Part shown: positions 6,960-26,349 of the stretch, one piece after another | Layout: the number at the start of each line of letters is the position of its first letter | Numbering within the stretch: the stretch's first letter is position 1 | Source: Candidatus Bathyarchaeota archaeon | GTDB taxonomy: Archaea > Thermoproteota > Bathyarchaeia > 40CM-2-53-6 | Reading direction: 5' to 3' | DNA length: 64,000 nucleotides | Assembly (NCBI GenBank): GCA_963733055.1 | Contig: CAVTBR010000001.1 | Span: 512,001 to 576,000 of the forward strand | Translations under genes and position numbers: made by a program | The notes under the pieces: model-generated | Told to the model about the DNA's origin: nothing | Databases searched by the model: none | What the model saw: the letters and a program-made list of their open reading frames with translations, nothing else

Positions 6960-6998
6960 GTGTGTGGGTCTAGTGGTGCGAACGACCAGATTTGAACC
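6960..6998 (+). repeat. 28-bp site fused to tRNA-3'-end-like sequence
   Basis: GTGTGTGGGTC-TAGTGG-TGCGAACGACC-A-GATTTGAACC; reverse complement of 6974-6998 is GGTTCAAATC-TGGTCGTT-CGCACCA. Confidence 0.8.
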
Positions 6999-7082
6999 CG
7001 GTTGAATGTGCCCGGTAAATTGCGGTCAGGATCGGTTGGCAGGATTTCAGAGTGAAGTTGGACCGCGCGTTCGTTCGGCTGT

Positions 7083-7661
7083 TCAGCTGTATGTCTTTAC
7101 GAGGGTTTCGAGTTTCTGGGTGGCTTGTGTGGTTACGGCTTTCTTCAGGTCGTTTCCCTGATGGTCCTGGGTTACTAGTACTGGTCCGAAGTCTTTTACT
7201 TCCCATATCCAAACGAGTTCCGTTGGGCCAAGTTGTTCAAGCAATCGTTTCTTCACTCGTACGATCTTTGAGACGGCTAGGGCGGAGGCTCCGCCGGTGA
7301 ATTCGGAGTAGACGGCGCCGAATGTTTCCAGCCCCTTCTTCCCTTTCTCTCCTAGACCGCCTTTTCCGATGATGATTTTGGTTTGATACTTTTCTAGGAT
7401 GGGTGGGGTTAGGGCGTCCATGCGTGTGCTTGTGGTTGGGCCGCCGGCTAGGATCCTCCATTCGTCGCCGACCTTTTGTGAGATTGGGCCGCAGTGGAAG
7501 ATTGGTAGGCCGATTAGTTCTGGGAGGAATGTTTCGATTAGTTTCTTGTGGGCTTGATCTCTCGCGATTGCAATGTCGCCTGTGACATAGAGTACGTCTC
7601 CTGCACGAATGTCAACGACTCGGCTGTTGTCTTGTGGGACGTGGAGTCTTAATTCTACCAT
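7083..7661 (-). CDS. Class I fumarate hydratase / tartrate dehydratase, beta subunit
   Basis: ARDQAHK, GPTTSTRM, IIGKGG and DFGP motifs. Confidence 0.92.
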   Translation of the reverse strand: MVELRLHVPQDNSRVVDIRAGDVLYVTGDIAIARDQAHKKLIETFLPELIGLPIFHCGPISQKVGDEWRILAGGPTTSTRMDALTPPILEKYQTKIIIGKGGLGEKGKKGLETFGAVYSEFTGGASALAVSKIVRVKKRLLEQLGPTELVWIWEVKDFGPVLVTQDHQGNDLKKAVTTQATQKLETLVKTYS

Positions 7662-7667
7662 TGTATC

Positions 7668-8531
7668 TCACCTTGTGATCTTGAAGTGTCCGTCGGTTAG
7701 TTCGGCTTCTGAAACTCTGTTTGCCCAGCATCCGAAAGAGATCGCTATGGGGAGGCAGGCGGTGTGGGTTCCGGCGGTTTCGATGTGAGCGTCGAGAAGG
7801 GTGGTGTCGCCCCCTAGGCCCATGGTCCCTATTCCAAGCTCGTTAGCGGCTTTCACGATGTTCGTTTCGAACTGTGCTACTTCGGGGTCGGGGTTGCGTG
7901 CGCCAATTTTTCTGAGTAATGCGAGTTTTGAGTTGACCATCGCTTGAACGGCGGATCCGCCGATTCCGATGCCTAGGATGTTGGGCGGGCAGGTTTTTCC
8001 TCCCGCGTCTATCACGGCTTGGAGAATATGCTTCATCATGTCTTGTCTGCTGGCGGTTGGGACCATCATCTTCAGGTTGGTGAAGTTCTCTGAACCAGCT
8101 CCCTTCAAAATCATCTTCATAGCAGTTTTGTCTGTAGACTTGTCTATCAGAACTTCCGGCTCGCCAAGTCCGGTGTTGGTGCCCGTGTTCTTTCTCGTGA
8201 GTGGGTTGACGACGTTCGCCCTCATACCGCCCTTAGAGGTGAGGCCCTGAATCGCCTCGCTCAAAGCGTTCTCCACCTCACCCATATGCTCGATCAAGTC
8301 CCCTGAAATGAAGAGCGTAACTAAACCCGTGTCTTGGCAGAGGGGAAGATGCCGTTCGTAACTCAGGTTAGCGCTGTTCAGGATGGCTTCGAGTTGTTTC
8401 TTGGCCAAGTCTTTTGTCTCATTCACATGAGCCTCCTTGATAGCGCCCATAATGTCCGACGGAAGCCCCATCGTAACCTGCGCGAGCATCTGATTCAATA
8501 TTGGAGGCAAATCATTTGCAGTAAATACCAT
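7668..8531 (-). CDS. Class I fumarate hydratase / tartrate dehydratase, alpha subunit
   Basis: PLCQDTG, KGAGSEN, CPP, GIGIGG, GLGG and CWA motifs. Confidence 0.92.
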   Translation of the reverse strand: MVFTANDLPPILNQMLAQVTMGLPSDIMGAIKEAHVNETKDLAKKQLEAILNSANLSYERHLPLCQDTGLVTLFISGDLIEHMGEVENALSEAIQGLTSKGGMRANVVNPLTRKNTGTNTGLGEPEVLIDKSTDKTAMKMILKGAGSENFTNLKMMVPTASRQDMMKHILQAVIDAGGKTCPPNILGIGIGGSAVQAMVNSKLALLRKIGARNPDPEVAQFETNIVKAANELGIGTMGLGGDTTLLDAHIETAGTHTACLPIAISFGCWANRVSEAELTDGHFKITR

Positions 8532-8681
8532 TCACTATCAACCGTATGCACCATGAGGAAGAGGTAACTTATGGAACGCGCTCTTACTGCCACTAGAATA
8601 TATTCTCATTAACCTGAATCAGCAGAATTAACTACGTTATCGTTTCGTATTGAGACTATCCAAAGCAAAAGAGGAATTCAT

Positions 8682-9086
8682 ATGGACATCAAAAGAAGTG
8701 GCTCACAGCCTTCAACCAAACTACCGGCCGAGTATTTCACCGGCACCGTGCGCATTGACCCCCTATTCGAAGCGCACGATCCGTCACGCGCAACCGGCCT
8801 CAGTGTCACGTTCGAACCCGGAGCCCGGACCGCATGGCACAGCCACCCGCTGGGCCAGACCCTGATCGTGACAGCTGGCTGCGGACTTGTACAGCACTGG
8901 GGAGGCAGGATCGAGGAAATTCGGCCTGGGGACGTGGTTTCGATTCCGCCGGGCGAGAAGCATTGGCACGGCGCCACGCCGACCACGGCCATGACCCACA
9001 TCGCCATTCAAGAACGGCTTGACGGCAAGACCGCCAACTGGATGGAAAAAGTCAGCGACGAACAATACCGTACCTACAAGGGTTGA
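8682..9086 (+). CDS. Cupin domain protein
   Basis: [16 protein letters not shown] and EKHWHGA motifs. Confidence 0.9.
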
Positions 9087-9116
9087 GTAGCTGATAGCAG
9101 CTACCTCCTAGGCGCA

Positions 9117-9755
9117 CTATTCTCGAAACTTACGTTCGGAAACTCGTCTGATAGATGATAGGATGAGTGGGATGAACCAGAAGTAGAATCGTATCGGTTG
9201 GTTCAGGAGTTTAATGTCCCAGAATACTGGCAGTACGGTGATAGCAAATAGGGCTGTGGATATGAAGTAAATGTTCCTAACTCTCGTGTATTTCGCGAGT
9301 GACTCTTTTGGAACTAATCCCTTCTCTTCCGTGGCTAATTGCTGCGTGAATAACGCGAGAATCAGCATCAGCCCGGCCATGTCTAGGGCGTAGAGTATTG
9401 AAGCGTAGTAGAGGAATATTTCATGCGTTAGAAGGTCGAAGGTTATGTTCAGGTAGAATAGGTAAGGTTCGATCGAGACCAGAAAGAGCAATACGAGGTT
9501 GAGGGTAACGGTCCTGCTATCCTCCAATGGAAGAACCGACATTACGTTCGTATAACTCAACCAGACAGAGATCAAAATCAGGAAACCGAACCCGAACTCC
9601 GCAATGTCGATAAGGATTCCGAGTGGCTTCGGGGGAAGCCGGGTTATCAGGGGAATAGTGCTGATCGCAAGAGCAAGCCCGAATATGATGTCGGAGAGCG
9701 ACTCAATTCGGGACCTAGCAATTCGCGGCCCAGCTCGTCCCACTTTTTCGTCCAA
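9117..9755 (-). CDS. TMEM175-family (DUF1211) potassium channel-like protein (copy 1)
   Basis: RIESLSDIIFGLAL matches the RxxxFSD signature; about six hydrophobic segments. Confidence 0.85.
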   Translation of the reverse strand: MDEKVGRAGPRIARSRIESLSDIIFGLALAISTIPLITRLPPKPLGILIDIAEFGFGFLILISVWLSYTNVMSVLPLEDSRTVTLNLVLLFLVSIEPYLFYLNITFDLLTHEIFLYYASILYALDMAGLMLILALFTQQLATEEKGLVPKESLAKYTRVRNIYFISTALFAITVLPVFWDIKLLNQPIRFYFWFIPLILSSIRRVSERKFRE

Positions 9756-25056: not shown

Positions 25057-25707
25057 TCACATGTTTTTTGCTTTGCGACTCAGGAGCAATAAATGCTGAA
25101 GTCCACGACTTACCCAGAGGCTTGCCAGAATCGCATACCAAAGGTAGAATCGCAGTGGAGTGCCTTGGATCATCCAGGACCAAAAGATTGGAAGAGCGGA
25201 TAACCCAAACAACCCAGCGGATATAAACTGCGTATTACGGAGCCACGTATACCCACCAATTAATTCCGGCTCGACCATTTCCTCTTTCCTCGTCAACATC
25301 TGTGCAAACAACCCCAAAATTCCAGTCAGGCCGGTCAAGTCGAGAGCGTAAATTTGAGATGTGAATGCAAGCATAGCGTGGTTTGCGGTGGCTGGGCCGA
25401 AAGTGATGAGGCTAAGCAGGTAGGGCTCGATCGAAACGAAGAAGAGCAGGAGGATATTCAGCCACATCATCATCCCCCTCTCGAAGCGGTCTCGCGGCCA
25501 GGCAGTTACCATACCAGTGTATCTGGACCAAACAGAAATCAAAATGAAGAAACTAAAACCGAATCCGAAAATGTCAGCCACAACGTCACTTGGATTGACG
25601 GCCGGTCGACTCAGCAACGACAACGATCCAATCGAGAGAGCCAGGCCGAATATCAAATCAGAGAGGGATTCGATTCTAGGTTTCGGAATTCGTACACCGA
25701 ACGTCAA
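25057..25707 (-). CDS. TMEM175-family channel-like protein (copy 2)
   Basis: RIESLSDLIFGLAL and FVSIEPYL; paralog of 9117-9755. Confidence 0.85.
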   Translation of the reverse strand: MTFGVRIPKPRIESLSDLIFGLALSIGSLSLLSRPAVNPSDVVADIFGFGFSFFILISVWSRYTGMVTAWPRDRFERGMMMWLNILLLFFVSIEPYLLSLITFGPATANHAMLAFTSQIYALDLTGLTGILGLFAQMLTRKEEMVEPELIGGYTWLRNTQFISAGLFGLSALPIFWSWMIQGTPLRFYLWYAILASLWVSRGLQHLLLLSRKAKNM

Positions 25708-25833
25708 TCACCCACGTAAATGTCCAGCGAGTTAACAGTGAATTTTCGCTAATAAGCTCCTTTTTCCCGACCAAACGTGGACAATCAGTCTGGTCAAACA
25801 GCGAAGGAAGCAAGAGGATGTTCAGTGGAAAGT

Positions 25834-25861
25834 GTGTGTGGATCGAATCGTGCGCACACAC
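25834..25861 (+). repeat. 28-bp 11-6-11 site
   Basis: GTGTGTGGATC-GAATCG-TGCGCACACAC. Confidence 0.9.
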
Positions 25862-25885
25862 TAGCGGATCCTAGGGTCGCTCGTA

Positions 25886-26098
25886 TTATGGAGGCATTAC
25901 TCTTTTGCCGCTTCTCTTATCGAACATAACCGTCCACCCGCCCCTTGGAGAAACGCCTCTGATAACATAAAAATCCGCATCTTCGAACTTTTCAGTAACC
26001 GCTGCCTGATGCCACGCGGTTCTAGCGAATAGCTCCGCACGCCTAGAAGCCTCATTCAAGTCCAAAATCTTCTCAGGTTCCATTCTCCTTTCGGGCAT
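25886..26098 (-). CDS. Small hypothetical protein
   Basis: 70 aa from ATG 26098 (MPERRMEPEK...WTVMFDKRSG); lies between two repeat sites. Confidence 0.5.
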   Translation of the reverse strand: MPERRMEPEKILDLNEASRRAELFARTAWHQAAVTEKFEDADFYVIRGVSPRGGWTVMFDKRSGKRVMPP

Positions 26099-26260
26099 TC
26101 TGCGCCGGTTCCTCTGCCACTCACGCCTAGCCAAGACAGTCCCCAATGGCGATAACTTGGACACGTGAATAGAACTTTTCCCGCGGCGGCTAGAACTAGT
26201 ATAGGGTATTGGCGCAGGTTGTTGTGTCGATGCGGCTGTGTGAGTACCTGAATTTGAATC

Positions 26261-26288
26261 GACGTCGGTCCTAATGGTGCGCACACAC
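26261..26288 (+). repeat. 28-bp 11-6-11 site directly after a T-loop-like box
   Basis: GACGTCGGTCC-TAATGG-TGCGCACACAC; AATTTGAATC at 26251-26260. Confidence 0.8.
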
Positions 26289-26310
26289 ACTTACCACGCT
26301 AAACGACGGC

Positions 26311-26349
26311 GGTTCAAATCATCGTGCTCGCACCAGCTGTAACACTCCC
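26311..26349 (-). repeat. Site fused to tRNA-3'-end-like sequence, reverse orientation
   Basis: + strand GGTTCAAATC-ATCGTGCT-CGCACCA-GCTGTAACACTCCC. Confidence 0.75.

Follow-up and report, generated by a model that had tools for sequence, protein, structure and literature searches.

Boxes resembling tRNA 3' ends and 28-bp palindromes in a Bathyarchaeota genome as probable landing sites and junctions of Cas1-driven transposons

Why should short intergenic boxes in an archaeal chromosome copy the 3' end of a tRNA, down to the exact distance from T-loop to CCA, at places where no tRNA gene stands? The question is raised by a 64,000-nucleotide (nt) stretch of a Candidatus Bathyarchaeota archaeon (the window; positions 512001-576000 of contig C1 in a 2.88-Mb genome of three contigs, C1-C3, with 50.5% G+C), where such boxes accompany a recurring palindrome of 28 base pairs (bp). 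The original prediction saw the palindromes as attP-like sites of a tyrosine integrase and the box-bearing copies as hybrids of the attL/attR kind. We propose instead, from sequence comparison and with a probability of roughly 0.8, that both are landing sites and end-to-end junctions, or scars, of the Cas1-driven transposons known as casposons.

A repeat search recovered eight copies in the window of a 29-nt unit that reads, in one orientation, (GTGTGTG) CGCACCA NN AGACC CACACAC. The site as a whole is GTGTGTG-CGCACCANNAGACC-CACACAC, which we read as a 14-bp target duplication with a right element end before it and a left element end behind it. With a weight matrix of 23 nt, made from 30 seeds, 52 sites in the genome reach at least 16 bits, versus 6.3 in mononucleotide shuffles; CGCACCA and CCCACACAC are rich in information and the two N nearly devoid of it, and matrix positions 0-3 are C (30/30), G (29/30), C (28/30) and A (29/30). 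Inverted repeats of 7-9 nt, CACACAC and GTGTGTG, terminate nearly all junctions. For further statistics we pooled 115 strong sites from this genome and from the fetched loci of its relatives, a few of which are counted twice since two collections contribute identical DNA as loci L008 and L010. GTGTGTG stands on the left in 48 of them, a T-loop-like box occupies spacing 9 in 30 and 37 show neither, and a subterminal ACGA[AC] occurs in 54/115 right flanks (background 7.7%).

In the box-bearing subset, TCAAAT(C/T) stands exactly 8 nt upstream of a 14-mer starting with CGCA. Both 25-mers on which the original prediction was built are present, GGTTCAAATCATCGTGCTCGCACCA at 26311-26335 on the plus strand and GGTTCAAATCTGGTCGTTCGCACCA as the reverse complement of 6974-6998, and in each the equivalent of tRNA position C61 is followed by 15 nt ending in CCA, of which 8 make up the gap and the other 7 begin the duplication. 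The whole genome contains 147 copies of GTTCAAAT and 314 of CGCACCA on its two strands; CGCACCA follows GTTCAAAT within 60 nt in eight cases, seven of them mimics and one a real tRNA, and in 8/8 the spacing is exactly 9. In 20 shuffles such pairs averaged 0.2 over all spacings and never stood at spacing 9, and a chance origin of the spacing is excluded. The same distance recurs in the 115 strong sites, where 26/28 TTCAAWT boxes lying within 70 nt upstream of a 14-mer are at spacing 9.

The boxes are not tRNA genes. ARAGORN in its default scan finds no tRNA in the window, the Rfam tRNA model has no match between 5 and 28 kilobases (kb) even at E ≤ 5, and the mimics do not amount to a cloverleaf with paired T-stem and acceptor stem. 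Their T-stems do pair poorly, as had been remarked from the window alone, with fewer than 5/5 pairs in 25 of the 30 box-bearing sites. Nothing is conserved at these sites except the loop, about 7 nt in front of it and the 4 nt that directly precede the 14-mer; the 3' strand of the T-stem and everything beyond about 7 nt upstream of the box are unconserved. If the exact T-loop-to-CCA spacing is a requirement of an enzyme's target, it is not evidence of a working tRNA.

Genuine tRNA genes nevertheless anchor the motif at two loci. The tRNA genes of this genome encode CCA, and most contain introns, often at unusual positions; ARAGORN reports 7 by default and 33 in intron mode, the Rfam tRNA model 13, and a direct count of well-paired T-arm-to-CCA ends about 40. 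Split or trans-spliced tRNA halves, which the seven default calls had brought to mind, were rejected given those roughly 40 normal ends and the introns in most genes; a candidate Ser-CGA tRNA in the window itself (58452-58595, minus strand) appears in intron mode only and is missed by the default scan. tRNAs ending in CGCA-CCA, without which the original prediction would have fallen, are represented by seven 3' ends with a perfect T-stem and by one further copy on C3. The tRNAs at C1:343231-343392 (Arg-TCT according to ARAGORN) and C3:367674-367769 (Gly or Ile, depending on the mode) both end in ...CGGCGGC-CGCACCA and run directly into an NN-AGAC-CACACAC arm. Since a CACACAC-type arm follows the same tRNA 3' end in only 3/28 fetched loci of relatives, the arm is an addition and not a part of the tRNA locus. 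At the Arg-TCT gene a 745-bp segment follows, with CGCACCACCAGAC on both sides and a 13/13 match between the duplicates. As a separate observation, a stretch containing AATTTACCGG(G/T)AC is found three times: at C1:1330340-1330400, at C1:1332585-1332640 and at 6998-7040 of the window. One copy directly follows a real tRNA ending in TCCCCGCACCA, another adjoins a decayed version of this tRNA end in inverted orientation, and the third is upstream of the window's first mimic.

What enzyme would demand such a target? The family 2 casposase of Aciduliprofundum boonei depends on a TCAAATC leader motif that precedes, by 8 bp, a duplication of 14-15 bp at the 3' end of tRNA-Pro (PMC6614799). In Methanosarcina mazei, family 2 duplications are 14 bp long, with CGCA invariant as the first four bases and a variable centre (PMC4779613); the last 4 bp of tRNA-Leu belong to the duplication, and the tRNA sequence upstream cannot be dispensed with (PMC6977970). 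Because motif, spacing and duplication length fit these published targets, we favour reading palindromes and hybrids as casposase products: the palindrome is better regarded as two transposon termini around a 14-bp target duplication than as attP, and the hybrids, in place of attL and attR, would be leader-proximal targets. We infer that the box is recognised by the local casposase in the same way as by the enzyme of A. boonei.

Genes for an enzyme of this type are present in congeners. A profile search matched Cas1 in 12/23 genomes of the genus, with up to 11 matches in one of them (G017) and frames of about 400-440 amino acids. One such gene, at 10167-11399 of locus L076 (genome G014), aligns over its full length (residues 9-404, with a helix-turn-helix at the C terminus included) to 6opm_A with E 6.9e-71, the next chain being at 3e-25; 6OPM was identified via the literature as the M. 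mazei casposase. In the same locus CGCACCACTATACC occurs three times, identical and in direct orientation (146, 8155 and 16784); Cas1 is enclosed by the second and third copies, and the outermost copy, at the 16784 end, is preceded by a box at spacing 9. Three copies of CGCACCAGCATACC in locus L074 (genome G015; 961, 6579 and 17558) bracket a Cas1-bearing stretch with 16-17-bp inverted termini, and here a leader mimic stands 15 nt after a real tRNA end. Direct 14-bp duplications are not confined to one locus: they are found three times over in L076 and in L074, at the Arg-TCT locus (13/13) and around a KaiC-like segment of genome G013 (13/14), some pairs being inverted.

The events behind these patterns would run as follows. 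A family-2-type casposase would recognise the T-loop motif TCAAAT(C/T) of a tRNA gene and cut the strands with a stagger of 14 bp, beginning 8 bp downstream of the motif, where CGCA closes the acceptor stem; insertion would duplicate the 14-mer CGCACCANNAGACC on either side of incoming DNA with the termini CACACAC...GTGTGTG, and repeated insertion would yield arrays. The first junction of an array would retain the leader (box, 9 nt, 14-mer, CACACAC) and look like a tRNA 3' end, internal junctions (GTGTGTG, 14-mer, CACACAC) would be the 28-bp palindromes, and small gene-carrying segments would thereby have been piled into an island.

Every junction in the window has the form GTGTGTG, CGCA-14-mer, CACACAC, some arms being decayed, and all matrix hits of at least 12 bits fall within 5305-25854; the mimic at 26329 scores 10.5 bits and the best hit beyond 27 kb 11.5. 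The first mimic is a leader-type junction on the minus strand (6958-6998; 36.7 bits), composed of the box GGTTCAAAT (6998-6990), a 9-nt spacer (6989-6981), the 14-mer CGCACCACTAGACC (6980-6967) and the terminus CACACACAC (6966-6958). The second belongs to a plus-strand composite (26268-26349) that begins with an inverted 14-mer, GTCCTAATGGTGCG (26268-26281), continues with a 47-nt piece resembling a solo end (26282-26328; CACACACAC...AAACGACGG, with the box GGTTCAAAT at 26311-26319 and a 9-nt spacer at 26320-26328) and closes with the 14-mer CGCACCAGCTGTAA (26329-26342) and a decayed terminus, CACTCCC (26343-26349). Between these two, palindromic junctions on the minus strand lie at 19615-19643 (GTGTGTG-CGCACCATTGATCT-CACACAC; 25.6 bits), 21198-21226 (14-mer TGCATCATTGATCG), 22548-22576 (GTGTGTG(CG)-CGCACCATTAGATC-CACACAC; 31.8 bits), 24910-24938 (14-mer CGCACTATTGATAC) and 25833-25861 (GTGTGTG-CGCACGATTCGATC-CACACAC; 26.5 bits), together with a junction at 21669-21697 (14-mer CGCACCAGTAGATC). 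On the plus strand are a junction whose outer arm has decayed (23136-23163; GTGTGTG-CGCACCAGCTGCCC-CACCTCT) and a palindromic one (24402-24453; GTGTGTG-CGCACCATTAGCCC-CACACAG; 29.9 and 21.8 bits) immediately followed by a second 14-mer, CGCACCAGCATACC, at 24431-24444. Further left there are a remnant, CGCGCCATTAGACA-CACACTGAG, beside a KaiC-like gene (5305-5327, plus strand; 21.3 bits) and a weak, decayed palindromic junction (6127-6159, minus strand; GTGTGTG-CGTCCTACTTGACC-CACTCTG; 8.2 bits). Of the degenerate ATTTGAA boxes that had been listed with the mimics, those at 6105 (GGTTCAGAT), 19584 (inverted, ATTTGAAC, in the element end neighbouring the 19615-19643 junction), 24379 (inverted, ATTTGAACC) and 26251 are real and lie within subterminal element ends beside sites, and no site was assigned to those at 10025 and 27162.

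Most of these junctions belong to an island of site-bounded segments, usually of one gene each, at 13773-29150 (no strand assigned). Its left border (13748-13772, minus strand) is a terminus, GTGTGTGTG, with a CGCAACATCAGATG-like 14-mer abutting conserved chromosomal DNA, and homology to genome G013 stops exactly at this junction. In genome G011 the protease genes of window 11.8-13.4 kb are followed after 339 bp by the gene of window 29.16 kb, and in G014 and G017 fumarase genes adjoin that same gene, the island being absent from all three; at this locus G013 carries another set of site-bounded segments, 8.8 kb in all. The earlier idea that modules accreted through a tRNA-derived site is borne out as far as it concerns the tRNA 3' end as anchor and the island (13.8-29.1 kb), which is polymorphic in relatives, and is not supported in naming a tyrosine integrase as the agent.

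Within the island, genes of window 19-27 kb match congeners singly and on different contigs. The sequence TTGATC is common to the junctions at 21198-21226 and 19636, on either side of luciferase-like and AhpC genes; the junctions at 21669-21697 and 22548-22576, 13/14 identical and direct, bracket a KaiC-like gene (21806-22531); those at 23136 and 24409 bracket an arginine-deiminase-like gene (23201-24214); and homology of a TMEM175-like segment to genome G002 begins at the CACACAC terminus of the 24910-24938 junction. A 3-kb segment at 15783-18870 has different flanks in all five relatives, a difference that gains meaning from the collinearity of window 28-48 kb in the same five genomes (83-87% identity in G013). 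Loss of synteny by itself, which general scrambling could explain, was dropped as proof of cassettes. Direct repeats at 15460-15707 and 18945-19129 (126 nt at 78% identity plus 34 nt at 79% that contain a TGGTGCG(C/T)GC half-site) flank a 3.1-3.4-kb segment holding an 824-residue frame without Pfam match; the surroundings of this segment are different in every one of five congeners.

What the small segments most often carry is a KaiC/RecA-like gene, most paralogues of which are bracketed by junction sites. A segment of 699 bp carrying it is 95.6% identical between the island of G013 and a copy on contig C2 of the studied genome, its homology is bounded by CACACAC/GTGTGTG termini, and in G013 its flanking 14-mers match in 13/14 positions. 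In 2/2 cases examined, one and the same segment end adjoins the central 14-mer in opposite orientations in different genomes. Single-gene segments probably move on their own. The family (about 240 amino acids, about 25 loci genome-wide, paralogues 24-65% identical, many ending in FEVTLEK) has members in the window at 5340-6041 (minus), 6205-6936 (plus), 21806-22531 (plus) and 26365-27084 (minus). Its proteins read FDPASQWYN at the place of the P-loop, so that the Walker A position is replaced.

Beyond the genus, 26 of the 81 genomes that were sampled in the order contain the motif (at most 2 mismatches), with up to 58 copies per genome and 0-1 in reversed-pattern controls, and its distribution is patchy by genus (7/8 in g1, 6/6 in g14, 0/17 in g12). 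It is present in 6/6 genomes with a casposase-like Cas1 and in 20/75 others, although the genomes are related and do not form an independent test, and the sorting of casposase-like Cas1 was informal (profile start 33-39, 169-187 bits). Two public contigs titled Methylomirabilota (L010) and beta-proteobacterium (L015) carry the same junction sites and a KaiC-like gene and look like misbinned archaeal contigs; L010 is a contig of congener G005 (L008).

Several observations weigh against a casposon origin. Cas1 has no profile match in the studied genome, where a tblastn search with a congener's casposase reached only E 0.29 at best and revealed no remnant; nothing in this genome is able to move now, and the link to Cas1 comes from relatives. 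No casposase being left, the window would be an old, partly scrambled array of small cargo segments. Clear ends with duplications were found at only 2 (L076 and L074) of the 12 fetched Cas1 loci, and similarity among the 12 is limited to the Cas1 gene itself, so that their comparison gives no element boundaries. The termini shared by the elements measure only 7-9 nt. Flanking 14-mers are inverted around the Cas1 segment of L077, around the KaiC-like copy on C2 and in part of L074, which simple insertion does not yield and for which later rearrangement or nested insertion is needed. A family B polymerase was found neither among the 7 scanned open reading frames of the L076 element, where no frame between the duplications exceeds 410 amino acids, nor within 20 kb of the Cas1 genes of G017, whose only 2 PolB matches lie about 26 kb away at the nearest; the self-synthesising part of the casposon definition consequently does not apply to the elements examined. 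Finally, the box-bearing pieces of 47-48 nt always end exactly 9 nt after the box, unlike a randomly truncated solo end, and a partial copy 45 nt after the C3 tRNA repeats the unusual TCCGAAT loop of that tRNA, which suggests that some boxes at least are copied tRNA sequence. Simple truncation of an end explains neither the fixed ends nor the copied loop; both might be due to selection for a functional leader or to a duplication long enough to take in the leader. Pieces of this kind also occur in mini-arrays of repeat-spacer-like geometry, in which two 14-mers 59-63 nt apart enclose a 47-48-nt end piece with a T-loop-like box (C3:367763/367826; L073 1885/1948, 2721/2780 and 4924/4985; L074 871; L072 13058; L076 146).

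Could the palindromes instead be repetitive extragenic palindromes (REP/REPIN) or miniature inverted-repeat transposable elements (MITEs), spread by an unrelated transposase and settling between genes, with a tRNA likeness that reflects ancestry or chance fixed by copying? The site copies are all intergenic, many palindromic sites extend to an imperfect palindrome of about 90 nt, and there are composite copies, about 110 nt long, in which inverted arms of 21 nt enclose some 55 nt. We nonetheless consider this improbable. The IS200/IS605-type Y1 transposase (PF01797) has 0 matches in the studied genome (positive controls in 6 genomes), and the copies are divergent save for two blocks separated by free positions, which is the pattern of a protein's target and not of recent copying. 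In addition, the sites bound segments that differ between genomes at one locus, and identical 14-mers bracket a Cas1-bearing element.

Attachment sites of a tyrosine integrase at tRNA genes, with attP-like palindromes and box copies as attL/attR hybrids of conservative recombination, are very unlikely. Real tRNA 3' ends do lie within two sites, the 28-bp site can be parsed, in our own reading, as an Xer-like 11-6-11, and neighbouring sites, which are direct in 16/23 pairs of this genome, often have the same central dinucleotide when direct (7/16, versus 15.7% of all pairs). Only the outer 7 nt are symmetric, however, the bases of the inner arms being different. The genome has six tyrosine recombinase genes (PF00589), but all stand at other loci beside ordinary tRNA 3'-end duplications, and none is in the window or in the site cluster at 519-532 kb of C2. 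A crossover within a core would not let a segment end meet the 14-mer in either orientation, as in the 2/2 cases above, and motif, spacing and 14-bp duplication fit casposase targets exactly.

We give just as little credence to the boxes as decayed duplicates of tRNA 3' halves, left by repeated insertion at tRNA genes and having no present role. The copy 45 nt downstream of the C3 tRNA repeats not only the TCCGAAT loop but also CGGC before the 14-mer, and ordinary integrase-type tRNA 3' duplicates do exist in this genome (three copies ending in CGGCCCCACCA on C3, for example). Free decay, on the other hand, would blur the spacing by insertions and deletions, whereas box and distance to the 14-mer are kept in 26/28; conservation stops at the loop; and the consensus acceptor strand, TGCYCGC, matches none of the listed tRNA 3' ends. 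The weakest account, a regulatory element (an operator of the KaiC-like genes, or else a hairpin for termination or processing), has next to no probability: a site does flank most of the roughly 25 KaiC-like paralogues on one or both sides, one lies about 10 nt upstream of a promoter-like TTTATA, and GTGTGTG...CACACAC could pair, but arm variants lack compensatory changes as judged by eye, the sites stand at gene starts and gene ends in both orientations with no consistent position, they have no Rfam match, and they mark the borders of inserted DNA.

One further feature of the window stands apart from the sites. An 1146-residue frame (39603-43043, plus strand) encodes an FttA/aCPSF1-type factor with KH_TffA, metallo-beta-lactamase, Beta-Casp and RMMBL domains, interrupted at residues ~369-859 by an intein with a LAGLIDADG domain (insertion ~40659-42177); this 1.5-kb stretch is missing in all five compared congeners, which are joined precisely across it.

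If the sites are casposon scars, the rules established in vitro for two euryarchaeal enzymes (T-loop motif, 8-bp gap, CGCA-starting 14-bp duplication) would hold in a distant archaeal phylum, and casposase target rules could be read directly from the scars in a genome. Casposases could then mobilise, or once have mobilised, single-gene units without a polymerase, giving islands that differ between sister species and a new route of gene flux in Bathyarchaeia; for annotation, the tRNA-like boxes here would be neither tRNA fragments nor integrase attachment sites. The kind of system is known; what would be new is the occurrence of family-2-type casposition signatures in a new phylum, with no polymerase found and with miniature cargo arrays whose leaders renew themselves. 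No description of casposons in Bathyarchaeota or Bathyarchaeia, nor of polymerase-less or non-autonomous ones, was found in the literature covered, which did not extend to subscription journals and supplements. A more far-reaching and distinctly tentative idea is that a polymerase-less casposase system operates as a leader-directed cassette array, in which a tRNA-like leader and a 14-bp repeat receive serial inserts of any DNA ending in ...GTGTGTG. The inserts might conceivably, and with the same reserve, range from 47-nt end pieces, each providing a new leader and giving 59-63-nt repeat-insert units, through single cargo genes to Cas1 elements of 8-11 kb. Such a system would be a living intermediate between casposons and the arrays of clustered regularly interspaced short palindromic repeats (CRISPR), and would shuffle single genes between genomes by means of Cas1.

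Compared with known systems, the arrays resemble in outcome both integron cassettes and the pdif modules of Acinetobacter, having mostly single-gene units with short, imperfect palindromes between them and a content that varies among close relatives. Integrons and pdif modules, in contrast, use tyrosine recombinases and conservative exchange. No attC cores (RYYYAAC/GTTRRRY) were seen in the site consensus, by inspection and without an attC-specific model, and the integron reading was rejected on that account; a survey of archaeal integrons found attC with models specific for it (PMC9668308).

The closest relatives are the family 2 casposons of M. mazei and A. boonei, which likewise insert at tRNA 3' ends, with a CGCA-starting 14-bp duplication and TCAAATC 8 bp upstream. 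M. mazei elements occur in tandem with one shared duplication between them, in both orientations and as solo ends (PMC4779613), as do the elements described here, and the congeners' casposase matches 6OPM over its full length. The host differs: a review places family 2 casposons in euryarchaea (PMC9939771), whereas the present genome is of a Bathyarchaeia-like Thermoproteota. Other differences are that the elements examined and their surroundings yielded no family B polymerase, that junctions number dozens per genome, that most units are of 0.4-3 kb with a single cargo gene and no Cas1, and that, the tRNA encoding CCA, 7 nt of the gene and not 4 lie inside the duplication. The solo terminal inverted repeats of M. 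mazei, short end remnants by a CGCA target without a full element (PMC4779613), have their counterpart in the roughly 50 junctions of a genome without Cas1; unlike them, many remnants here are of 47-48 nt with their own box 9 nt from the next 14-mer, each rebuilding a leader plus target.

These end pieces, if correctly interpreted, are relevant to the proposal that CRISPR arrays arose from casposon ends and would offer natural material for testing it. Unlike CRISPR loci, the arrays show no Cas2, effector genes or regular spacer length, and their inserts, from 47 nt to 11 kb, have termini of their own. The likeness lies in the arrangement of leader and repeat, a parallel that earlier studies of casposases have themselves drawn (PMC6614799, PMC4779613, PMC6977970): in both, an upstream leader steers a Cas1-family integrase to a short sequence that is duplicated with each insertion, and the product is an array of repeat, insert and repeat.

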